DNA from: an uncultured Candidatus Saccharibacteria bacterium
GTDB lineage: Bacteria > Patescibacteriota > Minisyncoccia > Phycocordibacterales > UBA2100
Reading direction: 5' to 3'
Assembly: GCA_964434285.1 (NCBI GenBank)
Contig: CAYSUJ010000004.1
Span: 18,732-82,731, forward strand
Length of the DNA stretch: 64,000 nt
Below the pieces are notes generated by a model. It saw nothing but the letters and a program-made list of their open reading frames with translations. It was not told the origin of the DNA and did no database searches. This document shows positions 3,161-38,356 of this stretch, piece by piece. Position 1 is the stretch's first letter. Every line of letters starts with the position of its first letter. The translations under genes and the position numbers were made by a program.

Positions 3161-3861
3161 TCAGAGGGTCACAGTGTCCGAGTTACGGAGGAGGAGCCGA
3201 GCGTCGGCGTCCCACCGACGGTCGCGGCCGAGCCTGCCGACGTAGGCGCTCCACCCGCGGTCGCCCCGAACGAAGCCGAGAACCGAGACGCTGCCATTCA
3301 CATCCTCAACGAATGCGAAGTTGGCATAGCCGTCAGTACGCAAGCCGACTTCTTCACCCGATTCCTACCGCTCGACGAGCGCTTCGGCTTCCGAGAGTGC
3401 GAGCGTGAGCCCGCGCCCCCGCAGTCGTGCAACAATCTCATCGTCAGCTGTACCGGGCACAGCCTGTACGGCCGCGAGCGCCATCTCCCGGAAGGTCGTG
3501 CTTCCGGATTCTGGAGCTGGTAGATCCCGACCGATTCGGTCGCGTTCGCGGTCTGCTGAGCGAGAAGCCAGCGATCGATGTCGGGATGGCGATATCCCCA
3601 AAGCGTGCCAGTGAAGCAATCCCGGGTTTTCTTGGGCTTTGCGCCGGTGAAGATCGCCTTTTTGTGGAAGACGAGAGTCGGACGCATTCGCTTTTCAGCG
3701 GACACCGAAAGTGCCTCTCGCAACGCTGTGGCCAGGGCTTTTCCATTGTTCGCCCAATGCAGGGCGACGTCAGGCTCGATATCGCGCGGCAACGCCTTTA
3801 TTACGGCGCCGGCGAATTCGGAAAACTGCCCAACGGACAAGGCTGTTCCATGTTTAGACAT
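3161..3861 (-). pseudogene. DGR target (variable) protein gene, apparently frame-disrupted
   Basis: From the ATG at 3861 (ribosome-binding site GAAAGGAA), a well-behaved frame reads MSKHGTALSVGQFSEFAGAVIKALPRD... but decays after about aa 110. A second frame becomes protein-like (...REMALAAVQAVPGTADDEIVARLRGRGLTLALSEAEALVER) and is separated by one in-frame TAG at 3365-3367 from the VR-containing C-terminal frame, which ends at 3161. Confidence 0.5.
3180..3292 (-). repeat. DGR variable repeat (VR)
   Basis: Aligns to the TR with 19 mismatches in 113 bp. Eighteen of these are at TR-adenine positions (minus strand) and one is a synonymous C/T. It encodes VLGFVRGDRGWSAYVGRLGRDRRWDADARLLLRNS. Confidence 0.8.
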
Positions 3862-3924
3862 GGCTGTTCCTTTCAAGGTTCACTTCCCAGCCTGATGCCG
3901 GAGAAGGGCACTATTATATAACGT

Positions 3925-5940
<2,016 letters not shown>

Positions 5941-7750: not shown

Positions 7751-8344
7751 CTACTGCACCGATATCTGTCCCGATGCCTCAACAACTACTTCAGCGCGCG
7801 TACCTCGCGGAGACTCAATTATAATGCGTGCACGATCATCGGTAATCGGCCCCGCCGTGCGACGAATGAGCGCATCCGGCTCTGGACGATAAAACAAAAT
7901 GTTAAGTGAGGGGAGGCCGCACGTTTCTATGGACGTCGAAGCATTGCGTGCGCACACGTCCACCACACGATATCCGGCCGCAAGCGTCATGGTTCGAACC
8001 GACTCGCCCGGATCGTAAATCCCGTTTGCAATGCTGTCACCATAGAGTTGATATACTGTTTGAGTATCTTGCGCTGAAGGAGCGAAGTACATGCCATATC
8101 CCACGTCGAAATTTGTTCCACTGAATCGGCGCACTGCAATGCCATACACCTGTGCTTCACGAACAGTGAGCGCCATCTCATGTGCAAGATTTTGAAGTAC
8201 GACACGGTTTCCAAACTGCGTATTCGCCGAAAGTACAATCGCCGAGAGCACCATGAATATCCCCGACACGACCAAGAGTTCAATCAATGTAAAAGCCCTA
8301 GAAACGTGAGGAGCGGTGTGTAGGCGTAAAAGAGTGCGAACCAT
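7751..8344 (-). CDS. type IV pilin-like / pseudopilin (GspH/FimT-like)
   Basis: Prepilin motif RA|FTLIELLVVSGIFMVL. Confidence 0.55.
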   Translation of the reverse strand: MVRTLLRLHTAPHVSRAFTLIELLVVSGIFMVLSAIVLSANTQFGNRVVLQNLAHEMALTVREAQVYGIAVRRFSGTNFDVGYGMYFAPSAQDTQTVYQLYGDSIANGIYDPGESVRTMTLAAGYRVVDVCARNASTSIETCGLPSLNILFYRPEPDALIRRTAGPITDDRARIIIESPRGTRAEVVVEASGQISVQ

Positions 8345-9188: not shown

Positions 9189-9668
9189 CTACGGTCTCAT
9201 GCAGTAGTAGGCGGGAGTTCCAGTGTCTGCACAGTCGAGACCACCTGCTGTTCCATCAACATCACCCGATGGAACTGCAGACGAGCCGCCTTCGATACCC
9301 GAACGAACTATGTAGCTTGCACATGGCGCCGTCGCACATGCCGTCCCATCGAGGTTAGCAGAAGCATAGCTATACACGTAGGTACCGCTATTGGTCGGAT
9401 CTGACGGAATCGACGAGATATAGTTGCTCGTCGTGAGCGCTGTTAGCGTGGTCGAAGCCGCGCCGCTGCCCGCTGGATAGCTTTGGTTGGTGTCATAGTA
9501 GAGCTCCAAAGCAAGTTGGAGTTGCTTCACATCCGAAACGCGACGTGCGTCACGTCCTTTTACGCGGGCGCTGTTGAGAGACGCCAGCACGACTGAGGAC
9601 AGAATGCCTATAATTGCTATGACTACAAGCAACTCAATTAACGTAAAACCTCTATTTATTTGATGCAT
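9189..9668 (-). CDS. pilA: type IV major pilin (the listed ORF runs to 9716; likely start MHQINRGFTLIE)
   Basis: N-terminus RGFTLIELLVVIAIIGILSSVVLASLNSARVKGRDARR, followed by a variable Cys-containing C-terminus. Confidence 0.8.
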   Translation of the reverse strand: MHQINRGFTLIELLVVIAIIGILSSVVLASLNSARVKGRDARRVSDVKQLQLALELYYDTNQSYPAGSGAASTTLTALTTSNYISSIPSDPTNSGTYVYSYASANLDGTACATAPCASYIVRSGIEGGSSAVPSGDVDGTAGGLDCADTGTPAYYCMRP

Positions 9669-29052: not shown

Positions 29053-30327
29053 CTAGTACTCGCGAATTGAGGTCTGTGCGTCGATTTTTTTGACGACGTC
29101 GAGGACCACTGAAACTGCAATGAGGAGCGCCGTACCACCGATTGTGAGTGCCGTGATGCCGGTCAAGCCTTGGAGGATGATTGGAAGAACTGCGATGCCT
29201 CCCAAGAAGAGTGCACCTACCAGCGTGATGCGGGTGATGATGGTGGCGAGGTATTCGGCCGTCGTGTGCCCTGGGCGCACGCCCGGAATAAAGGCACCGT
29301 TCTTCTGGAGATTCTTTGCCACCTGATGCGGCTCAAAGGTGATTGCGGTGTAAAAGAACGTAAACATGAATACGAGGAGGAAGTAGAGCACTCCGTAGAC
29401 CCACTGATTCGCGAGTCCATTTACAACCGCCTGAGCGCCAGCTGAAAGCCACGTGATCGATGATTGCGAGACGAAGGTGGCGATCATTTGCGGAAAGAGG
29501 AGGATGGAGAGACCGAAGATAATCGGCATCACCCCCGACTGATTAAGGCGGAGTGGAAGATAGGTGGAAACACCGCCCATCACACGAGAGCCGCGAACGC
29601 GACGAGCATAGGTGACGGGAATCGGGCGTTCTGCCTCCGTGATGAAGACGACGCCCGCAGTTATCGCGATGCCAAGCGCAGCGAATGCGAGGTAGGTCGG
29701 CACCTGGGAGACATCGAACGCGAATGCAATCTGCGCAAACGCAGCGGGAAGTCCCGCAACGATGCCGGCAAAGATGATAAGTGAGACACCGTTCCCCACA
29801 CCGAACTCGGTGATAAGTTCACCGATCCACATGAGGAGAAGCGAGCCCGCCGCAACGATGAGTGTGTTCACGATTGCCGTTTCAAGATCCATCGGTGGGA
29901 TCGCGCCGTTCTGCTGGAGAAGTAGGAGGAATGCAAAACCCTGTAAGAGCGCGAGTGGCACCGTGAGGTAGCGCGCGTAGGTCATGAAGCGTGCGCGACC
30001 AGCATCCCCTTCTTCCTGATACATCTCCTTGATTTTTGGCACCAAGACCGTGAGGAGCTGCATCACGATCGAGGCCGTGATGTAGGGGCCGACACCGAGC
30101 ATGACGATGGAGAGATTAGAAAAACCGCCGCCGGAGAAGACGTTTAAGAGGCCGAGGAATTGGTTGTTCGCGAGAAACGCCTGAACACCCGAGGCATCGA
30201 TCGATGGCACGGGAATCGCCGCGAGGAGTCGAAAGACGACGAGTGCGCCAAGCACAAAGAGGACTCGAGCCCGGAGGATTGGGTCTTCAATGACGATCTG
30301 AACTTTGCGCACGAATGCATCGAACAT
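29053..30327 (-). CDS. secY: preprotein translocase SecY
   Basis: 424 aa, 10 transmembrane segments, follows rplO. Confidence 0.9.
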   Translation of the reverse strand: MFDAFVRKVQIVIEDPILRARVLFVLGALVVFRLLAAIPVPSIDASGVQAFLANNQFLGLLNVFSGGGFSNLSIVMLGVGPYITASIVMQLLTVLVPKIKEMYQEEGDAGRARFMTYARYLTVPLALLQGFAFLLLLQQNGAIPPMDLETAIVNTLIVAAGSLLLMWIGELITEFGVGNGVSLIIFAGIVAGLPAAFAQIAFAFDVSQVPTYLAFAALGIAITAGVVFITEAERPIPVTYARRVRGSRVMGGVSTYLPLRLNQSGVMPIIFGLSILLFPQMIATFVSQSSITWLSAGAQAVVNGLANQWVYGVLYFLLVFMFTFFYTAITFEPHQVAKNLQKNGAFIPGVRPGHTTAEYLATIITRITLVGALFLGGIAVLPIILQGLTGITALTIGGTALLIAVSVVLDVVKKIDAQTSIREY

Positions 30328-30330
30328 AGG

Positions 30331-30780
30331 TTAGGAAATGGTTCCCCCCGCCTTTTCGATAGCTGCTTTTGCGCCCGTCGTGACGAGCACGCCGGTAACC
30401 GTGAGCTTCTTCGAAATAGCCGCGCCGACGATCTTCACTGCCGGAGCCTTGCGGCCTTTCTTTACAGAAATGATTCCTGCTTCTGCGAGCGTCTGTGGAT
30501 TCACCGCACCACTCATCTTTTCGAGCTGAGCAAGTGTGACCGTAACTGGGCGAGGCTTCTTTTCCCACACCGTGCGGCCACGATTCTTACCGAAGCCACG
30601 GCGCTTTGGGATCTTCTTGATGATGTCGCGAAGTGCTGGACGAATCTTTGCGCCGGCGCGCGCTGTCTGACCCTTACCACCCTTCCCCGAGGTCTTACCG
30701 CGCGTGGAAGACTGACCACGACCAACGCGGCGATACGGACGCTTCGTCATTCGCTTGAGTGTGTGAAGTGCTTTTTCCAT
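30331..30780 (-). CDS. rplO: 50S ribosomal protein L15
   Basis: Gly/Arg-rich N-terminus and ...AAIEKAGGTIS. Directly follows rpsE with no L30 gene. Confidence 0.85.
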   Translation of the reverse strand: MEKALHTLKRMTKRPYRRVGRGQSSTRGKTSGKGGKGQTARAGAKIRPALRDIIKKIPKRRGFGKNRGRTVWEKKPRPVTVTLAQLEKMSGAVNPQTLAEAGIISVKKGRKAPAVKIVGAAISKKLTVTGVLVTTGAKAAIEKAGGTIS

Positions 30781-30781
30781 A

Positions 30782-31477
30782 TTAGTTCTTGGCGATCTGC
30801 TTCAAAGCCTCGACGGCAGCGCGGGCATTGTTGATTGGGTTGTGCGAGCGGGAAAGAATCTTTGCGGTGACGTCGGTGACGCCCGCGAGCTCAAGGACTG
30901 AACGAACGGATGAACCCGCCACGAGACCACGGCCAGGAGATGGGCGGATCTCAAGCACGGATGCTGCATACTTTGCGGTTACATCGTGCTTAATTGAGTT
31001 TGTCTTCGTGAGATCAACAGTGATCATGGCGCGCTTTGCAGCACGTGATGCCTTCTCGATCGCAAGTTGTGTGTCTGCGGCTTTGCCCAAGCCCACACCC
31101 ACACGACCCTTCTTGTCGCCGAGCGCCATACAGACGGAGAAATTGAAGCGGCGACCACCAGCCATCACACGCGCGACACGGCGGATGGAAAGCATTTTTT
31201 GTGCGAACTCAGAACGACGCTCATCGCCACCACGGCGAGGACCGCGGCGATCGCCTCCACGACGATCACGCTGGCCGCGTCCCATGCGAGGACCACGCGT
31301 GTCTGCCTGTGGTGCCTGCGGTGCAGCCATAACAACCTCCGTTTCCGGTGTTTCGTTCTGCGTGTCGATTACCTGTGTTTCGTCAGTCATATTAAAATTC
31401 GAGTCCTGCCTTACGCGCTGCGTCAGCAAACGCCTTGATAGTGCCTTGGTATTGGAATCCACCACGATCGAAGACAA
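30782..31477 (-). CDS. rpsE: 30S ribosomal protein S5 (the real start is probably near 31390; the R/G-rich N-terminal extension may be partly artefact)
   Basis: ...RRFNFSVCMALGDKKGRVGVGLGKA... Confidence 0.9.
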   Translation of the reverse strand: MSSIVVDSNTKALSRRLLTQRVRQDSNFNMTDETQVIDTQNETPETEVVMAAPQAPQADTRGPRMGRGQRDRRGGDRRGPRRGGDERRSEFAQKMLSIRRVARVMAGGRRFNFSVCMALGDKKGRVGVGLGKAADTQLAIEKASRAAKRAMITVDLTKTNSIKHDVTAKYAASVLEIRPSPGRGLVAGSSVRSVLELAGVTDVTAKILSRSHNPINNARAAVEALKQIAKN

Positions 31478-31739
31478 CCTTCTTCACACCCTTCTCTCCC
31501 GCCTTCTTCGCAAGCATCTCTGCTGCCTTCTCTGCCTTCTCGCGCGGTGTGCCGGTCTTTACTTCGTTTGAGGTGACCGCAGCGAGCGTTGCTCCGCGCT
31601 CGTCGTCAATGATCTGCGCGATGACGCGTGTATTCGATTTGTAGATAGAGAGACGTGGGCGCTCCTTAGTGCCAGAAACCTTCGCGCGTACGCGATTGTG
31701 TCGGCGTGTTCGTTTTTCTGATGCAGTGAGTGTTTTCAT
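31392..31739 (-). CDS. rplR: 50S ribosomal protein L18
   Basis: RPRLSIYKSNTRVIAQIIDD... Confidence 0.85.
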   Translation of the reverse strand: MKTLTASEKRTRRHNRVRAKVSGTKERPRLSIYKSNTRVIAQIIDDERGATLAAVTSNEVKTGTPREKAEKAAEMLAKKAGEKGVKKVVFDRGGFQYQGTIKAFADAARKAGLEF

Positions 31740-31744
31740 ATGTG

Positions 31745-32287
31745 TTATGCGGATGCTGCGGCTTTCTTACCCTGCTTCTGGCGGACGACTTCGCCCTCAT
31801 AACGAATACCCTTGCCCTTGTATGGCTCTGGCTTCTTGAGGGAGCGAATAGATGCAGCAAATTGACCAACCGCATCTTTGTCGGCGCCAGAAATGGTGAC
31901 GATGTTTTTCTCCACGACCGCGGTGAGACCTTCAGGAATCGCAACAATGACAGGGTGCGAAAAGCCGAGCGCCATCTTGAGATTCTTGCCCTGCAATTCT
32001 GCTTTGTAGCCGATACCTTCGATCTGGAGCTTCTTCTGGAAGGGTGTGTTGACGCCGGAGATCATGTTCTTTACGTGCGCAGCGTAGGTGCCCCAGAGTG
32101 CTTTTGCGAGGCGCGATTCATTTGCAGGATTCACGGATACCGAGCCGCCCTCAACCTTGACCGAAACAGCGCTGTGCGTTGGGCGAGAAAGCGTGCCTCC
32201 CTTCCCTTTGACGGTGATGGAATCCGCAGAGACCGAGACATCAGTGCCTGCTGGAATGGCGATAGCGAGTTTACCAATACGTGACAT
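31745..32287 (-). CDS. rplF: 50S ribosomal protein L6 (the listed ORF runs to 32344; likely start MSRIGKL)
   Basis: MSRIGKLAIAIPAGTDVSV... Confidence 0.85.
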   Translation of the reverse strand: MSRIGKLAIAIPAGTDVSVSADSITVKGKGGTLSRPTHSAVSVKVEGGSVSVNPANESRLAKALWGTYAAHVKNMISGVNTPFQKKLQIEGIGYKAELQGKNLKMALGFSHPVIVAIPEGLTAVVEKNIVTISGADKDAVGQFAASIRSLKKPEPYKGKGIRYEGEVVRQKQGKKAAASA

Positions 32288-32291
32288 ATGA

Positions 32292-32687
32292 TTACCAAAT
32301 TTGGAAGAGCGCTTCACCGCCGACCTTTTCTTTCTTTGCTTCAAGACCCGTTTTCACGCCCTTCGGAGTGGAGAGGATGATCGCGCCATGACCATAGCGA
32401 ACTGGTGTGATGTCGGTTACCGATGCGTAGATGCGACGGCCTGGCTTTGAGATGCGCTTTACGCCCTTGATGTGGGGCGCGCCGCCTTCAGTGTATTTGA
32501 GATGCACCTCGATCGTCTTCTTGACCTTCTTCCCCTTCTTCTCAACCTGCTTTATCCAACCCGCATCCTTGAGCTTTTCTGCAATCGCGAGCTTGAACGA
32601 GGAAAACGGCACCGAGACGGTTGCCTGCTTCACAGCCCCAGCATTCGTGAGACGGTTTATGAAATCGCCGACAGGATCAGTAATCAT
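32292..32687 (-). CDS. rpsH: 30S ribosomal protein S8
   Basis: MITDPVGDFINRLTNA... Confidence 0.9.
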   Translation of the reverse strand: MITDPVGDFINRLTNAGAVKQATVSVPFSSFKLAIAEKLKDAGWIKQVEKKGKKVKKTIEVHLKYTEGGAPHIKGVKRISKPGRRIYASVTDITPVRYGHGAIILSTPKGVKTGLEAKKEKVGGEALFQIW

Positions 32688-32694
32688 AAGAAAA

Positions 32695-32880
32695 TTACCA
32701 AGAAGACTTCTTTACGCCTGGGATGTTGCCCTCAAGCGCTTCCTCGCGGAAGCAGATGCGGCAGAGGTTGAAATCACGCATGAAGCCACGTGGGCGGCCG
32801 CACTTGAAGCAACGACGAACCGTGCGCGAAGTGAATTTCGGCGTGCGGTTAGCTTTCACGATCATTGATTTCTTGGCCAT
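32695..32880 (-). CDS. rpsZ: 30S ribosomal protein S14 type Z (zinc-binding)
   Basis: 61 aa with CFKCG...CRIC. Confidence 0.9.
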
Positions 32881-33179
32881 GGAATAGTTTCTAGTTGTTA
32901 GATTTCAGTTGCCAGTTAAAACAGCAACTTAATCTGAATGCCTAAAGGAGAGTTTCGGGGCTTGCACCTTGGCTTTCGCCGAGAGGTTATAGCGTCCCAA
33001 TCCGTGGCCTAGATTCTGGCAGTTTACCCCGAGCGCAGTCGAGGGGTTTCCTCGGCCAGCTGACGTACTTGCTCAAACTCAGACCCCCTATGAGGCTTGG
33101 GCATATTACTTGAGCCTGTTTGAAAAGTCAAAGGGTTGGTGTAATGTCTCGATAGATCCGAATTAGGGGAGAATAGAAC

Positions 33180-33506
33180 ATGTTCTGGAAGACAAAAGCC
33201 CGCGATAACATCAGTTTCGTCTTTGGTTCTAAGGCCGCAAAAGCGCTTCGGGAAATAACGGCTTCATATGGGTTCGACTCTGATGCGCACACGATTCGAA
33301 TGGCACTCACAAGTGCTCGATCATTAATGAACATCGAAAAAGAACGGGGGTGGCAGGTTATTTTGCGGGACGAACTTGGCAACGAGTGGAGTTTTTCGAT
33401 GAAAGACCCCACTAAGGCGTTTCCCATAGGAACGCACAAGGCCCCGCCCCCGGACAAGCCTCGAGCCGTCGGAAATGTCATTCATTTCGACTTTGGGAAA
33501 CAATAG
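33180..33506 (+). CDS. hypothetical protein (108 aa) with its own terminator
   Basis: GGGGAG ribosome-binding site and a plausible TTGAAA/TAATGT promoter upstream. A strong terminator follows. Confidence 0.35.
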   Translation: MFWKTKARDNISFVFGSKAAKALREITASYGFDSDAHTIRMALTSARSLMNIEKERGWQVILRDELGNEWSFSMKDPTKAFPIGTHKAPPPDKPRAVGNVIHFDFGKQ

Positions 33507-33526
33507 GAGACCGCCACTCCTGTTAA

Positions 33527-33550
33527 GACCGCCTCTCGGCGGTCTTTTTC
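33527..33550 (+). terminator. rho-independent terminator
   Basis: gaccgcc-tctc-ggcggtc hairpin followed by TTTTTC. Confidence 0.7.
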
Positions 33551-33557
33551 TTGCTGC

Positions 33558-33585
33558 TTGACAAATTTATACCAAAATATATATT
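33558..33585 (+). promoter_or_regulatory. sigma70-like promoter for dinJ-yafQ
   Basis: TTGACA-N16-TATATT. The ATG of dinJ is 8 nt downstream of the -10 element, so the transcript is leaderless or near-leaderless. Confidence 0.5.
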
Positions 33586-33592
33586 TGAGTAT

Positions 33593-33865
33593 ATGGCTAC
33601 TACTACCGTACTTTTTAAGACCGATAAGAAATTAAAAGCGGCTGCGCAGGCGACTGCAAAGAAGATGGGCATCCCCTTTTCTGCTCTTCTTAATAACGCG
33701 ATGAGGGAGATTGTCGAGAAACAAGAAGTAACCTTTTCGGCGAAGCCGCTCGTGCCTACTCCCTATTTGAGACGGATATTGGAACAGGGGGAAAAAAATC
33801 TAAAAGAAGGAAGGGTTACTTACTACAACAGTCTTGAAGAGATGCGTGCAGCTCTCGACAAGTAA
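33593..33865 (+). CDS. dinJ: RelB/DinJ-family antitoxin (the listed ORF starts at a TTG at 33551)
   Basis: MATTTVLFKTDKKLKAAAQATAKKMGIPFSALLNNAMREIVEKQEV... Confidence 0.7.
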   Translation: MATTTVLFKTDKKLKAAAQATAKKMGIPFSALLNNAMREIVEKQEVTFSAKPLVPTPYLRRILEQGEKNLKEGRVTYYNSLEEMRAALDK

Positions 33866-33869
33866 CACT

Positions 33870-34133
33870 ATGCGAACTGTTGGTGATAAGGTGTTTAATC
33901 GTCAATACAAAAAGCTTGCCAAATCAATCCAGGATAAGCTGTGGGAACGTCTCGCGCTTCTTATCCAAAACGAATCACATCCCTTGCTGCACGACCATAA
34001 ACTCAATCCGCCATATGATGGCTACCGGAGCATCAATATCACCGGGGACTATCGCCTGGTGTACAAGAAGATGGATGAGGATACTTACTATCTTCGCGCC
34101 ATTGGAACGCATCACCAACTGTACGGATCGTAA
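33870..34133 (+). CDS. yafQ: YafQ/RelE-family toxin (the listed ORF starts at 33834)
   Basis: ...LHDHKLNPPYDGYRSINITGDYRLVYKKMDEDTYYLRAIGTHHQLY. Confidence 0.7.
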   Translation: MRTVGDKVFNRQYKKLAKSIQDKLWERLALLIQNESHPLLHDHKLNPPYDGYRSINITGDYRLVYKKMDEDTYYLRAIGTHHQLYGS

Positions 34134-34263
34134 GGAGGCCGGATGGTGGAGAACAGCGGAAAAATTAGAGCACGCCACGGGCTATCCAAAAATAGAGGCG
34201 GGCATATAGTTCCCCGCAGGTACGGAATGAACCGTACACATTGAGGAAACTAAGGAGGTTCAA

Positions 34264-34713
34264 ATGGCATTACGCAGAGGGTTTATGCTCCTTTGTGCCG
34301 CACTTCTCTTCTCTCTCCCGGCGCACGCAAACTCCTTGGCACCCTTCTCGGGCAGTGGAGGGGCGAGCGGAACGATTCTGCTCGTGGGCAAGTCGAGCGC
34401 GGATCGCGCGAATTGCTCCCGACGCTCAAGTGTCGTCGGGAGCAGTGGGCTCTCGTTCTCGCTCTCGTGCAGCGGCGGACGCGATTTCAACCTTTCATGC
34501 TTGTTCAGTACGACAGGTTCACGCGTGAGCGGGAACTGCAGCGCGGGAATCGCAAGCCTCTCGGGAAGCGGCACCGTGAACGGCAAAGTGATGCAGTTGT
34601 CGATGCAAAGCAGTTTCGGGACGCATGCGTATATGACGATCACGCCGTCGTCGCTCTCGTTCCGATCGCCGGACGCGAAATATGTGAAATCGCTGCAGAT
34701 CAGCAGCCGATAA
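34264..34713 (+). CDS. secreted Ser/Gly-rich small protein
   Basis: Strong ribosome-binding site AAGGAGG. Signal peptide MALRRGFMLLCAALLFSLPAHA. Confidence 0.45.
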   Translation: MALRRGFMLLCAALLFSLPAHANSLAPFSGSGGASGTILLVGKSSADRANCSRRSSVVGSSGLSFSLSCSGGRDFNLSCLFSTTGSRVSGNCSAGIASLSGSGTVNGKVMQLSMQSSFGTHAYMTITPSSLSFRSPDAKYVKSLQISSR

Positions 34714-34729
34714 GACAATTGATACGAGA

Positions 34730-34751
34730 GGGCGGCGCCTGCCGCCCTTTT
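34730..34751 (+). terminator. rho-independent terminator
   Basis: gggcggc-gcct-gccgccc hairpin followed by TTTT. Confidence 0.7.
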
Positions 34752-34947
34752 GAATGGAAAGACCACTCTTGCGAGTGGTCATTCTTCCTTATGCTTTGAG
34801 CGGGAGGGTCAAGTCACTAAGATTTTCCATCGCACTGTGCGCTCGTAAAATCTAAGTGCTTCCTCCCCGGGCTCGCGGTTTTTGCTTCGCAAAAACATCG
34901 CTCCGCCTCTTGCCTGCTGCCGGACAAGAAGAAGTTCTTGTCCTGCG

Positions 34948-35487
34948 CTACGCGCGCAGCGGCAAGCCGAGGTGGCGGAGGAAGGCTTCGGCTTCCTTTT
35001 TATTTTTTGCTGTTGTGGTGATGGTGACTGCAAGGCCAAAAATGTCCTTTGCTTCTTCGTCGGCGGTTTCTGGGAACACGGTGTGCTCCTTGAAGCCGAG
35101 CGTAATGTTCCCCATCTCGTCGATCGCCTTAGGATTCAAGCCGCGGAAGTCGCGAACACGCGGGAAGACGATGTGCACAAGCTTGTCGAGGAATGTCTGC
35201 ATGCGGCTCCCTCGAAGCGTCACCATGTAACCAGAGAGATCGCCACGGCGGGTCTTGAAGTTCGCGATGGATTTCGTCGTCGTGCGTGGCGCTGGCTTCT
35301 GACCAGTGAGACGCGTGAGACGGCCGTTGATGAGTTCGAGGCGCTTTTTGTCCTTGACGCCGCCCACACCTGTGGAGACGACGATCTTGGTGACGCGTGG
35401 CGCCTGCATTGGGCTCGAGTAATTAAAATCACCCTTGAGTGCTGTGAAGGTTCCCTTGTGTGTATCTGCGGAAGTGTGCTTTTTCAT
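34948..35487 (-). CDS. rplE: 50S ribosomal protein L5
   Basis: ...RVTKIVVSTGVGG...MVTLRG. Confidence 0.9.
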   Translation of the reverse strand: MKKHTSADTHKGTFTALKGDFNYSSPMQAPRVTKIVVSTGVGGVKDKKRLELINGRLTRLTGQKPAPRTTTKSIANFKTRRGDLSGYMVTLRGSRMQTFLDKLVHIVFPRVRDFRGLNPKAIDEMGNITLGFKEHTVFPETADEEAKDIFGLAVTITTTAKNKKEAEAFLRHLGLPLRA

Positions 35488-35488
35488 A

Positions 35489-35800
35489 TTATGCGATCTT
35501 AGCCTTACTCTTTACTGCCACACGCTCACGCGCGCCGGTCTTCGAGCGCTCGATGCGGATGCGAGTTGGCTTCCCATCTTTTGGATCTGCGAGCATCACG
35601 TTTGAAACGTGAATCGGCATCACCTTCTCGATGATCTGACCCTTGCGCGTGCGCTGATTGGGCTTTCGATGCTTCTTCGACATATTGAGGCCATCGATAA
35701 CAACCATCTCCTTCTTTGGAAGCACACGCGCAACAGTACCCGAGCTGCCCTTGCTCTTTCCTGCGATGACTATGACTTTGTCTCCTTTCTTGATTTTCAT
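35489..35800 (-). CDS. rplX: 50S ribosomal protein L24
   Basis: MKIKKGDKVIVIAGKSKG (KOW motif). Confidence 0.9.
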   Translation of the reverse strand: MKIKKGDKVIVIAGKSKGSSGTVARVLPKKEMVVIDGLNMSKKHRKPNQRTRKGQIIEKVMPIHVSNVMLADPKDGKPTRIRIERSKTGARERVAVKSKAKIA

Positions 35801-35969
35801 AAAATTTCAGATTTTGAATGATTGATTGCACTCAGAATCGGGCTTGTTTGAGGCAAAACCGAGCGTTTGGAAACACTGAATGACCGCGGCACTATACCTT
35901 CCTTTTGGCTAAAAAACAAGACCCCGGGCGCTCGCGCGTCCGGGGTCATAATCTACATGCCAAGCACTT

Positions 35970-36827
35970 CTATGCGGCGAGACCGAAGCCTTTAAGGGTG
36001 GCCTGCGCGACCCGCTTGCCGAGCTCCTCGTTCTTGAAGCGCTGGGCGTTGATGTGCGGACCGGAGCCGAAGAAGCCGCTCGAAACCGAAAAGCCGTGCA
36101 CGGTGCCTACCTTGATGGCGGCGAGCACCTCATCCTTCGTCCAGCTGTAGAGGCCGTTCGTCGGATTGCGCATTTCTTCGGCCTGACCGACCAGCTGGAA
36201 GAAGCTGGCTTCCTCCTTGAGGTCGGCGAACGAGAGCGGCTGGTTGTTGTGGTACTTCCAGACGTTGCCACGTTCGATGAGTTCGATCCATGACTCCTCG
36301 GCGGTTGTCGAAACGCCTGCCGAGTAGTTGACCCCGTAGAAGGGCCATGGCGAACCGTCGCTACGACCTTCGTGCATCTGGTGATAGTCGATGCGGCCGA
36401 TGGTCATCTCGTGCTCGATGCCGTCGTGCGGAAAGCGGACACGCACCTTGTCGTGCTCCCAGAACTTTGTCTCCGGGAGATCGCCGAGGCGAACGTACTT
36501 CTCGCGAAGAAGACCGCTTGCGTCGCGCATGGCGGCGTCACGGCGCCTCTCCTCGTCCTTGTCGACCATCTCGATTGACCAGTCACCGGGAACGATACGA
36601 CCGTCCCGAAGCCAGATGGACACTGCACCTTTGCAGTGATAGACGCCGGGCTGTCGCACGAGGACTGGAACACGCGGTATGTAGGTAACGGCGTCGTAGA
36701 AACCGCTGACGATGCCGATGGTGCCGTCGGGGACATTCTTGTAGGTGTCTGTCCACGCACGTCGCTCGGGATCGACCTTGAACATGACCTCGTCGCCAAT
36801 CTGCAGAAGTTCGGAAAGAATCATCAA
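35970..36827 (-). CDS. hypothetical cytoplasmic protein (285 aa) inserted between rplN and rplX
   Basis: Strong ribosome-binding site AGGAGG 7 nt from the ATG. Has its own consensus promoter. GC content is higher than the flanking ribosomal genes. No family recognised. Confidence 0.5.
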   Translation of the reverse strand: MMILSELLQIGDEVMFKVDPERRAWTDTYKNVPDGTIGIVSGFYDAVTYIPRVPVLVRQPGVYHCKGAVSIWLRDGRIVPGDWSIEMVDKDEERRRDAAMRDASGLLREKYVRLGDLPETKFWEHDKVRVRFPHDGIEHEMTIGRIDYHQMHEGRSDGSPWPFYGVNYSAGVSTTAEESWIELIERGNVWKYHNNQPLSFADLKEEASFFQLVGQAEEMRNPTNGLYSWTKDEVLAAIKVGTVHGFSVSSGFFGSGPHINAQRFKNEELGKRVAQATLKGFGLAA

Positions 36828-36886
36828 AGCCTCCTATTTTGAAGTCTTGCATATAAAAGTGGCTTTCTGAGCCACTTTCTATTTAT

Positions 36887-36914
36887 ATTATACTTTATAC
36901 ATGCGATATGTCAA
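36887..36914 (-). promoter_or_regulatory. consensus sigma70 promoter
   Basis: On the minus strand: TTGACA (36914-36909), 16-nt spacer, TATAAT (36892-36887). Confidence 0.55.
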
Positions 36915-37056
36915 TGCCATGGAGGGGGGAAAGCGAGACGGAGGGGTGAAAGTGCTTCACGAGGGACCCCGCAGCTGGCGAGGATGAGCCCGATTTGCAA
37001 GCTTGCAAATCGGGTCTGCCCGAGGGGGGCATTTTCACCTCTCCGCGAGCGGAGAT

Positions 37057-37437
37057 TTACACGATCTCCGGCGCGAGCGTACCAATGCGCTGATAGCCAG
37101 CTTCAACAACTTCGCGTGGGATAGGACCGAAGACACGAGATGCCTTTGGTTCCTTTGGCTCCTTACCAGAACCAGTGATGAGGACAACTGCGTTTTCATC
37201 AAAGCGGACATAGCTGCCGTCCTTGCGGCGGAGTGGCTTTGTCTGGCGAACGATGACTGCCTTGTGCACCTCCTTCTTCTTCACTGCTTTACGCGGCTGT
37301 GCTGTCTGGATGGAAATAACTACCTGGTCGCCCACCTGTGCGTAGCGCTTCTTGGAGCCGCCGAGCACCTTGAACACACGACCCATGGTTGCGCCGGAGT
37401 TGTCTGCGATCTTCACGAGAGTTCGGTCTTGAATCAT
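37057..37437 (-). CDS. rplN: 50S ribosomal protein L14
   Basis: MIQDRTLVKIADNSGA... Confidence 0.9.
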   Translation of the reverse strand: MIQDRTLVKIADNSGATMGRVFKVLGGSKKRYAQVGDQVVISIQTAQPRKAVKKKEVHKAVIVRQTKPLRRKDGSYVRFDENAVVLITGSGKEPKEPKASRVFGPIPREVVEAGYQRIGTLAPEIV

Positions 37438-37441
37438 AGGG

Positions 37442-37705
37442 TTATTCTGCCTTTGCGGAAGCGAGGATGGATGCGAGGGTGAAGTGCTTGCGCTTTGAGA
37501 GCGGGCGGATTTCGCGGATCGCGACCTTGTCCCCTACTTTCGCGGTGTTGCCCGCATCGTGCACGAGGAACTTCTTCGACTTCTTTATGTACTTCTGGTA
37601 CTTCGGGTGCTTTTCAAAGCGCTCCACGGAAACCGTGCAGGTGTCTTTCATCGCCGCCTTCACGACGACGCCCTCGAATGTCTTTCCTGTGGTTGTGGTT
37701 TCCAT
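37442..37705 (-). CDS. rpsQ: 30S ribosomal protein S17
   Basis: ...GVVVKAAMKDTCTVSVER... Confidence 0.9.
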   Translation of the reverse strand: METTTTGKTFEGVVVKAAMKDTCTVSVERFEKHPKYQKYIKKSKKFLVHDAGNTAKVGDKVAIREIRPLSKRKHFTLASILASAKAE

Positions 37706-37725
37706 AGTCTTAAAGAGTGTGCATC

Positions 37726-37929
37726 CTAGCCGTTTTTCTTCGTTTCTGCAATGCGGCGCACTGAGAGCTCAGTTTCCATGCGTGCGATCTCGCGGCGGAG
37801 CGTACGACCAGACCGGACATTACGCGTGCGAGAACCAGCCTCACCAAAGCGGAACGAGCGAAGGCTCTCGCGCTTTTCCGAGATCTCCTTCTGCAAATCT
37901 TCCACGCTGTGTTTCTTAAAATCTGCCAT
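37726..37929 (-). CDS. rpmC: 50S ribosomal protein L29
   Basis: 67 aa helical, MADFKKHSVEDLQKEISEKRESL. Confidence 0.85.
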   Translation of the reverse strand: MADFKKHSVEDLQKEISEKRESLRSFRFGEAGSRTRNVRSGRTLRREIARMETELSVRRIAETKKNG

Positions 37930-37933
37930 ACGA

Positions 37934-38356
37934 TTATGCGCGCTCCACGACGCGAGCTTTTATCGGGAGCTTGGTGCCGGCCTTCCGAAGCGCTTCACGC
38001 GCCATCGCCTCAGGAGCACCGTCGACTTCGAAAATAATGCGGCCGGGGCGGACCTGCACGACATAGCCCTGCAAGTCACCCTTACCAGAACCCATGCCGA
38101 CTTCTGCTGCCTTCTGAGTGAATGGTCGATCAGGAAACACACGAATCCAGACTTTTGCCGTCTTTCCTGCTGCACGCGTGAGTGCGCGACGTGCTGCTTC
38201 GAGCTGGTTTGAGGTGATGCGTGCTGGCGTCATCGCCTTAAGGCCGTGTGAGCCAAAAGAAACGGTGATGCCACGAGTCTCTGGGCGTGCGAGACGCTCG
38301 GGGCTCTTGCGGCCAGTCTGCCATTTGCGGTGTTGTGTTTTCTTTGGTGCGAGCAT
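37934..38356 (-). CDS. rplP: 50S ribosomal protein L16
   Basis: MLAPKKTQHRKWQTGRK... Confidence 0.9.
   Translation of the reverse strand: MLAPKKTQHRKWQTGRKSPERLARPETRGITVSFGSHGLKAMTPARITSNQLEAARRALTRAAGKTAKVWIRVFPDRPFTQKAAEVGMGSGKGDLQGYVVQVRPGRIIFEVDGAPEAMAREALRKAGTKLPIKARVVERA

Follow-up and report, generated by a model that had tools for sequence, protein, structure and literature searches.

The rplE–rpsZ junction as a probable accessory-gene hotspot in the spc ribosomal cluster of Paceibacteria and Kaiserbacteria

Chromosomal hotspots (islets) for horizontally acquired genes between core genes have been described in other bacteria, and in Escherichia coli the spc operator at rplE, bound by S8, serves as an autoregulatory ribosomal-protein leader. 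Here, we describe a 2,067-bp segment (32881..34947) that lies exactly between the stop codon of rplE and the start codon of rpsZ in a 64,000-nt stretch of DNA from an uncultured Candidatus Saccharibacteria bacterium (GenBank assembly GCA_964434285.1, contig CAYSUJ010000004.1, positions 18,732 to 82,731, forward strand; hereafter, the window, to which the coordinates refer). The ribosomal genes are on the minus strand, and the segment between them carries four plus-strand open reading frames (ORFs) encoding, in order, a 108-aa product, a 90-aa antitoxin, an 87-aa toxin and a secreted Ser-rich protein of 149 aa. A sequence-only reading of this DNA had described ~2.1 kb of opposite-strand cargo splitting rplE from rpsZ, an anatomy that our analysis confirms.

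The locus resembles the hotspots of other bacteria in that the same flanking core genes enclose differing cargo rich in toxin–antitoxin and defence-type genes and in that an integrase of its own is needless if exchange runs through the homologous flanks. It differs from them in that the flanks are spc ribosomal genes, normally among the tightest junctions known, and in possessing a dedicated conserved promoter and leader. Within the ribosomal gene supercluster itself, Brandis 2021 (PMC8046335) examined four insertion events in detail, which lie between operons (rpoBC–str and str–S10) or at rplL–rsmC; each represents a single event inherited by a clade, and none is at rplE–rpsN. As in those cases, the locus described here has extra genes within the conserved supercluster and shows no evidence of long-distance transfer; unlike them, it falls inside an operon, at the rplE–rpsZ junction of canonical spc, and holds content that changes between genomes. 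Our search of a literature library for the rplE–rpsZ junction in the Candidate Phyla Radiation found nothing.

The rplE–rpsZ junction across related genomes

Our analysis suggests, with a probability of roughly 75 %, that the rplE–rpsZ junction is an ancient transcription-unit boundary acting as an accessory-gene hotspot in Paceibacteria/Kaiserbacteria. We fetched 80 species-level relatives through L5, titled Kaiserbacteria, Paceibacterota, Parcubacteria and, in some cases, Saccharibacteria, and 98 related loci in all. The L5-to-S14 gap ranged from 157 to 4,307 bp (median 1,216 bp) in the 57 relatives with both genes, measuring at least 500 bp in 48 of them and at least 2 kb in 16. The L24–L5, S14–S8 and S8–L6 junctions were mostly below 50 bp, and L14–L24 was tight in most loci, reaching at least 99 bp in ten. 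Three outgroups (L5 ~52 % identical) had an rplE–rpsZ gap of 0–12 bp; adjacent rplE and rpsZ were seen in no Kaiserbacteria-like relative, the smallest gap there consisting of the rpsZ promoter and its leader. In a tree computed from five proteins, the gap is found throughout the Paceibacteria-like clade and the leader throughout the Kaiserbacteria-like subclade.

Gap contents across relatives span at least 15 unrelated Pfam families, and 107/183 of the mechanically called gap ORFs are singletons. Recurrent families are class I SAM methyltransferase (11 loci), YafQ (4), EamA (3) and PaaX/Cas2-like (3), with PemK/MazF (2, with MazE), NYN (2), GNAT (2) and HepT with Pol-beta nucleotidyltransferase (MNT) also present; other families include Fic/DOC, C5 DNA methylase, HNH, inositol monophosphatase and low-molecular-weight phosphatase. 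The window and loci L084 and L001, which share 90–92 % ribosomal-protein identity, differ in the gene for the secreted protein (hereafter, the barrel gene, after its modelled fold) and in which ORFs occupy the stretch from the antitoxin to the rpsZ promoter. The sequence-only reading had held that an ancient arrangement, fixed among relatives and without mobile signatures, would speak against an insertion. The relatives do share the arrangement, and no mobile signatures were found in the searches described below; the arrangement is not fixed, however, and because its content turns over between genomes, the site is best called a hotspot.

As a separate observation, six loci (L023, L029, L035, L065, L067 and L077) extend more than 5.9 kb past rplE without rpsZ, reflecting either a gap above 6 kb or a relocated rpsZ. 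A partial leader match lies ~5.9 kb downstream of rplE in L065.

The flanking genes and the hairpins next to rplE in the window are as follows.

37057..37437, minus strand: rplN
35489..35800, minus strand: rplX
34948..35487, minus strand: rplE (uL5), matching Pfam Ribosomal_L5 and L5_C; the L5 protein of L001 is 88 % identical
34757..34784: palindromic GC hairpin between the convergent rplE and secreted-protein genes, terminator-like on both strands (plus, 34761..34780; minus, 34780..34761)
34722..34755, plus strand: hairpin with the stem GGGCGGC/GCCGCCC and a TTTT tail, the predicted terminator of the secreted-protein gene, found by inverted-repeat search
32695..32880, minus strand: rpsZ (zinc-type uS14, 61 aa), matching Ribosomal_S14 (E value 1.5e-23)
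32292..32687, minus strand: rpsH, followed by rplF, rplR, rpsE, rplO and secY

In the arrangement that we propose, the 2.07-kb segment would be the form taken in this genome by a variable intergenic islet that the whole clade shares, at an old transcription-unit boundary in the spc cluster of Paceibacteria/Kaiserbacteria (Candidate Phyla Radiation). The upstream transcription unit, of which rplE is probably the final gene, would end past rplE at a hairpin pair facing the convergent cargo, and the space from the rplE stop codon to the rpsZ promoter would tolerate and accumulate extra genes.

The promoter and structured leader of rpsZ

With cargo in antisense orientation, the sequence-only reading had reasoned that transcription of rpsZ and the genes downstream must either read through or restart. 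A conserved promoter and leader lend support to a restart. Their elements in the window are listed below.

33103..33131, minus strand: sigma-70-type promoter of the rpsZ unit, TTGACT-17-TAATAT (clade consensus TTGACTT-N17-TATATT)
32881..33098, minus strand: structured 5′ leader of rpsZ, supported by covariation and a minimum free energy (MFE) fold, with no Rfam match
33098..33081, minus strand: 5′ GC hairpin of the leader (AAGCCUC-GUAG-GGGGCUU), then a U-run
33085..33079 pairing with 33015..33006, minus strand: long-range helix S2:S3 (CAAGGCC in S3)
between the U-run and S3, minus strand: variable hairpin P2
about 33005..32950, minus strand: two-part helix P3 around an invariant UAA/UGC loop, with the GNRA-capped P4
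3′ of P3/P4, minus strand: CUCCUU..GGC tail

Using nhmmer, we detected the promoter-plus-leader element (~175–220 nt, non-coding) in the window and in 47/98 fetched loci, always upstream of rpsZ, and a TTGAC[AT] box is present in 45/45 sequences checked. The element occupies the entire gap in the smallest cases (L032, 176 bp; L011, 184 bp). Since rpsZ has retained its promoter and leader throughout the clade, the operon break is older than the present cargo. We propose that rpsZ, the putative opening gene of a downstream unit (rpsZ-rpsH-rplF-rplR-rpsE-rplO-secY...), and the genes that follow it are expressed from their own promoter (33131..33103, minus strand) via a structured leader of ~215 nt that lacks a Shine–Dalgarno sequence; no such sequence precedes the rpsZ ATG in any of the 43 loci with the rpsZ start on the contig. 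The predicted start site, 7 nt past the −10 box, falls at ~33096, inside the 5′ arm of the 5′ hairpin.

Two observations concern the layout of this region in other loci. Distant Paceibacteria (L070, L060, L059, L073 and L057; last ~100 nt before rpsZ) have a strong promoter of the TTGAC(A)-N17-TAGTAT type, in which TGC immediately precedes the −10 box, and in these short gaps the promoter is followed by a short GC 5′ hairpin and a U/G-rich stretch, without the large P2–P4 domain. In L043, L045 and L046, the promoter–leader (~7856–8018, 8055–8214 and 9369–9541, respectively) lies 380–450 bp further from rpsZ, and the extra stretch holds a related opposite-strand ORF of 120–157 aa (no Pfam match in L045, which was scanned); cargo can therefore also occupy the space between leader and rpsZ.

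The leader spans roughly 150–220 nt in 36 aligned sequences. A MAFFT alignment of the full leader misaligned the variable P2 and S3; hence, trimmed blocks were used. RNAalifold recovers the 5′ hairpin and P3/P4. In the trimmed alignments, 23 pairs were 83 % paired, versus 73.5 % when shuffled and 53–58 % in slid controls, with double changes in 18/23 pairs and a covariation of 0.370 vs 0.223 (reached in 0/500 shuffles). The S2:S3 helix was 89 % paired, with double changes in 7/7 pairs and a covariation of 0.550 vs 0.317 (0/500 shuffles), a count in which eight sequences were shifted by one nucleotide. In an alignment-free test, each sequence's own S2 paired better with its own S3 than with those of others (z=−6.8), and P3 behaved likewise (z=−6.6); as no alignment is used, the S2:S3 result is independent of the shift. 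The same test was not significant for the 5′ hairpin (z=−1.2), the core of which is invariant, only two basal pairs varying. It returned z=0.2 for the AGGGGG:CUCCUU closing helix, where covariation is uninformative either way because both sides are conserved. The MFE fold of the window leader (−68.2 kcal/mol, z=−1.6) uses this helix to close the 5′ end onto the tail and contains S2:S3, P2 and P3/P4.

Searches against Rfam 15 returned no match at E≤1 over 30000–38000, none at gathering score over the whole window and none at E≤1 on the leader of five other loci. A small conserved protein was considered in place of an RNA and rejected, as 32881–33131 contains no ORF of at least 40 aa and the helices covary. 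The leader is presented as a candidate new ribosomal-protein leader RNA matching no Rfam family.

Its most likely function would be autoregulation by a ribosomal protein encoded downstream. Like autoregulatory leaders, it is a 5′ untranslated structure that covaries, the unit it precedes encodes S8 and other RNA-binding proteins, and its invariant UAA/UGC internal loop adjoins the GNRA-capped helix. In contrast to the spc operator of E. coli, it precedes rpsZ rather than rplE, and its 5′ hairpin and S2:S3 are mutually exclusive, since they share nucleotides. By eye, only half of the S8 site is reproduced (U.G, bulged A, A-U); this likeness, and a further one to 16S helix 45 plus the anti-Shine–Dalgarno tail, also drawn by eye, are speculative.

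The 5′ hairpin resembles the ordinary terminators of this genome, e.g. the one after a 285-aa gene upstream of rplX (GACCCCGG...CCGGGGUC-UUGUUUUUUAGC). On one reading, the full hairpin and U-run would stop transcripts arriving from rplE or from the cargo, and RNA born at the rpsZ promoter, which lacks part of the hairpin arm, would instead fold via S2:S3 into the leader. A simpler alternative is that the hairpin serves as a 5′-terminal protective stem-loop. A riboswitch-type attenuator composed of the 5′ hairpin and U-run was rejected, as the lone alternative partner, S3, is transcribed after the U-run.

The cargo genes and the history of the toxin–antitoxin module

The cargo consists of the following plus-strand features, beginning next to the rpsZ promoter.

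33180..33506, plus strand: 108-aa ORF, the lone cargo gene absent from related loci
33525..33546, plus strand: intrinsic terminator 3′ of the 108-aa ORF, with a 9-bp stem and the T-rich tail TTTCTT
33558..33585, plus strand: toxin–antitoxin promoter TTGACA-16-TATATT, with 11/12 consensus matches
33593..33865, plus strand: RelB/DinJ-like antitoxin, 90 aa, assigned from profile matches below cut-off and gene order
33870..34133, plus strand: RelE/YafQ-family toxin, 87 aa (PF15738, TIGR02385)
34264..34713, plus strand: secreted Ser-rich protein, 149 aa, with an AAGGAGG ribosome-binding site at 34252..34258

With the two hairpins next to rplE, these features include the three plus-strand terminators (33525..33546, 34722..34755 and 34761..34780), the TTGACA-N16-TATATT promoter and the Ser-rich protein with its ribosome-binding site that the sequence-only reading had reported, and each was recovered in our analysis. 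The same reading had named a DinJ–YafQ module, and here its two halves fared differently. The toxin scores above the curated cut-offs for YafQ_toxin PF15738 (41.4 bits; cut-off 30) and TIGR02385 RelE_StbE (40.5 bits; cut-off 27.9) and is, by curated profile, a member of the RelE/YafQ family. The DinJ label depends on matches that fall under the curated cut-offs (TIGR02384 RelB_DinJ, 34.9 bits, cut-off 45.65; RelB PF04221, 20.1 bits, cut-off 22.4), together with gene order and context; hence, we regard the RelB/DinJ assignment as putative. The antitoxin also matches phrog_2737 (E value 3.7e-10), and a sequence search of the PDB returned no match for it. Only 4 nt separate its stop codon from the ATG of the toxin, and about 11 other lineages retain the two genes as a pair.

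In common with E. coli DinJ–YafQ/RelBE, the module has the antitoxin–toxin order with 4 nt between the genes, toxin profile matches and a palindromic operator over its promoter. When aligned to the E. coli YafQ structures 4ml0/4ml2, the toxin is ~30 % identical over the aligned stretch (estimated by eye) and retains the DH, GD and GTH motifs and the equivalents of His50, Asp67 and His87, which, with His63 and Phe91, we take from the YafQ literature to be the catalytic residues. It departs from E. coli YafQ in having Asn at the His63 position and Tyr at that of Phe91. Further differences from the E. coli systems are the sub-threshold antitoxin, a predicted leaderless mRNA and a secreted barrel gene conserved at the 3′ end in a subclade.

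An inverted-repeat search revealed a palindrome (TATAC..GTATA, 33568..33593) covering the −10 box of the toxin–antitoxin promoter. The antitoxin ATG (33593) lies 8 nt past this box, and the mRNA is therefore predicted to be leaderless, in agreement with the near-leaderless start described in the sequence-only reading. Eleven sequences, comprising the window and ten homologous loci (one of them in a different genomic context), share the promoter, the palindrome and the distance to the ATG. At the sequence level, a promoter with a palindromic operator is consistent with autoregulation. By the usual mechanism of the family, the antitoxin would neutralize a ribosome-dependent mRNA endonuclease and repress its own promoter, and the module is described as a putatively active toxin–antitoxin pair.

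The 149-aa protein has a signal-peptide-like N-terminus and is 25.6 % Ser over residues 25–149, after an assumed cleavage at AHA|NS. It has eight full-length relatives of the same length (56–83 % identity), and the two that were looked up are both at the rplE–rpsZ site. Its AlphaFold model (pLDDT 83) consists of a signal helix followed by a ten-strand beta-barrel, for which the top Foldseek match is nitrobindin 3wje (TM 0.65, E value 3.6e-4, ~11 % identity), suggesting a resemblance of fold rather than family membership. Since no T-tract terminator is visible between them, the barrel gene is probably co-transcribed with the toxin.

Among the cargo, only the 108-aa ORF appears to be lineage-specific. 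It returned no family match in Pfam, NCBIfam or PHROGs and no tblastn match in the first 80 loci, and a word-indexed search returned only itself. A full HMMER scan detected 18 remote relatives (P0131–P0148, E values 2e-13 to 1e-3), 11/18 of which have two matched stretches; ten were scanned, and the seven under 220 aa have no Pfam match. The ORF defines a domain of ~70–100 aa for which neither the window protein nor these seven relatives gave a Pfam match. Upstream of it, the −35 box of rpsZ (TTGACTTTTCAA on the minus strand) corresponds to TTGAAAAGTCAA on the plus strand and might offer the divergent 108-aa ORF a −35 box arranged back to back with that of rpsZ (33100..33135, by eye). Longer minus-strand ORFs of 117 aa (33128..33481) and 168 aa (34260..34766) lie antisense to two of the cargo genes; these were not themselves searched for relatives and are taken as spurious because the plus-strand products have relatives.

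The toxin–antitoxin pair adjoins rplE on the opposite strand in L001, L002, L010, L043, L055, L081, L084, L091, L092, L097 and L098, of which L091, L092, L097 and L098 are metagenome contigs with the toxin–antitoxin arrangement of the window. In L081 (duplicates L082/L083) and L084 (duplicates L085/L086), a secreted-protein gene lies 3′ of the toxin, as in the window. While the sequence-only reading considered a toxin–antitoxin module in a ribosomal operon unusual, the module is common at this position in the clade. On the five-protein tree, 6/7 members of the window's subclade carry it (in one case as the antitoxin alone), and its distribution outside that subclade is scattered. The gaps of L004, L019, L037 and L046 gave matches to the antitoxin but not the toxin; in L004 and L046 these adjoin rplE and might represent what is left of a decayed module. 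At the DNA level, similarity to the window extends from the stop codon of the toxin gene exactly as far as the −35 box (34132..33558), and its 65–77 % identity is similar to the 66–81 % of the flanking ribosomal genes.

This recurrence of one family at one site over many lineages, always convergent with rplE, together with the established action of RelE/YafQ toxins on the ribosome and the both-strand hairpins between the convergent genes, would also fit a functional coupling, in which the module, alone or together with the barrel protein, is retained as a regulator of, or is co-regulated with, ribosome synthesis. Examples would be damping of the 3′ end of rplE by convergent transcription, or a ribosome-dependent RNase whose activity is matched to the supply of ribosomal proteins. 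We consider such coupling improbable: the module is dispensable, since many relatives hold unrelated cargo or none (L032 and L011), the terminators on both sides argue for insulation, and the presence of MazEF, HepT/MNT and Fic at the same site fits a permissive site better than a specific partnership.

We regard as still less probable that a recent mobile element placed a toxin–antitoxin cassette into an intact spc operon of this genome and broke its transcription, which is close to the one-off, possibly mobile insertion envisaged by the sequence-only reading. Composition is compatible with such an event, GC content being 0.42–0.48 over 33400–34150 (the 3′ end of the 108-aa ORF and the toxin–antitoxin genes) against ~0.55 in the flanks, and GC content at third codon positions (GC3) 0.48–0.53 in the 108-aa ORF and toxin–antitoxin genes against 0.61–0.69 in the ribosomal genes. 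The 108-aa ORF is missing from every related locus, and the toxin–antitoxin family is present in another genomic context too. However, about 11 other lineages, with L5 proteins 60–88 % identical, carry the module at this very site, rplE and rpsZ are adjacent in none of the Kaiserbacteria-like relatives (their shortest gap being promoter plus leader), and the clade-wide promoter and leader indicate that the break predates the cargo. Nor did the locus present any feature of an integrative element that we looked for. No integrase or transposase was found among the four window ORFs or in the 25 most frequent Pfam families of 125 relatives' gap ORFs, four further families being unlisted; the search for flanking repeats proposed in the sequence-only reading returned only short, chance-level matches over 32600–35200; no tRNA gene was detected in the window or in 25 loci, nor did ARAGORN find a tmRNA in the 300 bp upstream of rpsZ; and no empty site was found, the closest relatives (L001, L084 and L002) carrying the module at rplE–rpsZ. 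For the toxin–antitoxin and barrel genes, a mobile insertion is thus largely refuted. Instead, the module, and in a subclade the barrel gene, would have been inherited at the site or exchanged there between relatives.

An assembly or binning artefact, in which a ribosomal contig was chimerically joined to foreign DNA, is extremely unlikely: although the genome is uncultured and metagenome-derived and its composition changes within the gap, L087, an independent 2.1-kb contig obtained in a different sequencing run, has identical barrel and L5 proteins plus the toxin, and the architecture is repeated in NCBI metagenome-assembled genomes, Logan contigs and Joint Genome Institute contigs from unrelated samples.

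Several points weigh against the interpretation of the junction as an ancient unit boundary and hotspot. The gap ORFs of relatives were called mechanically, and the five-protein tree is a rough neighbour-joining tree. Most genomes examined are metagenome-assembled; chimeras are argued against by the recurrence of the arrangement in independent assemblies. Where transcription starts, that it terminates past rplE and that the two units are independent of each other are all predictions from sequence. The remaining points concern the module. Toxin–antitoxin identities (51–76 %) are uncorrelated with ribosomal-protein identities (71–92 %; Spearman 0.18), toxin–antitoxin GC3 is 0.01–0.19 lower than that of the host ribosomal genes in eight loci, and a further copy of the module, 60 % identical and preceded by the same leaderless promoter/operator, lies between two HhH-GPD glycosylase genes near RNase J (L093–L095, 2731–3261), so the family is not restricted to the ribosomal site. 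In view of these identities, GC3 values and the HhH-GPD-context copy, purely vertical inheritance of the module is not shown, and it may have been gained repeatedly. Its history may be one of ancestral residence with losses or of repeated exchange at the site, between which pairwise identity and GC3 do not separate; the manner of exchange itself is conjectural.

A second break at rplN–rplX and the meaning of the site

The cluster of the window is also interrupted between rplN and rplX (gap 35801..37056), where the following features were found.

35970..36827, minus strand: conserved hypothetical gene of 284–285 aa
36914..36887, minus strand: perfect promoter TTGACA-16-TATAAT
36878..36856, minus strand: 5′ hairpin
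35947..35920, minus strand: strong terminator
35919..35891, minus strand: promoter-like TTGTTT-17-TATAGT
35801..35925, minus strand: conserved non-coding segment before rplX

The protein has 154 relatives at E≤0.001 across the Candidate Phyla Radiation (identities 38–85 % among the 120 listed), which elsewhere occur in non-ribosomal contexts, and the window protein is without a Pfam match. The gene is absent from all 80 related loci and looks like a lineage-specific insertion, in contrast to the cargo at rplE–rpsZ. L005 carries a different gene at rplN–rplX (3601–4551, 316 aa), with alpha/beta-hydrolase- or prolyl-aminopeptidase-like motifs HGGPGS and GGSWG identified by eye, and widened rplN–rplX gaps are also present in L025 (484 bp) and L017 (265 bp). 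The conserved non-coding segment of ~130 nt before rplX recurs in L005 (4540–4660) and L004 (120–330). It opens with the promoter-like motif, which overlaps the U-run of the upstream terminator, and a possible long-range helix (CAUUCAG/CUGAGUG) lies downstream of that motif. These features hint that the terminator/promoter/leader design recurs at rplX, with a possible second leader.

A more far-reaching and rather doubtful extension of the hotspot reading is that the rplE–rpsZ junction, and in some lineages rplN–rplX as well, is a built landing pad with a composite RNA element that insulates the essential downstream genes. The ribosomal flanks would serve as homology arms, moving toxin–antitoxin and defence cargo between diverged species without an integrase. 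In the insulating element, the hairpin and U-run would terminate incoming transcripts, and promoter-born RNA would fold via S2:S3.

The components of the locus, a type II toxin–antitoxin module and small accessory genes, are ordinary; their setting, a clade-wide, promoter-equipped break in spc, is not. The S10-spc-alpha cluster is regarded as the most rigid bacterial gene array and is the backbone of marker phylogenies and of the binning of uncultured lineages, and in a large group of ultra-small bacteria one of its internal junctions appears to be a slot that stands open and changes quickly. This bears on the reading of ribosomal contigs, as a variable insert at this position is not a misassembly. 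The leader is a testable candidate for an autoregulatory or insulating element in organisms where almost no gene regulation is known, and the site offers a concrete place to ask how toxin–antitoxin and defence genes persist and move in reduced genomes with few permissive sites.

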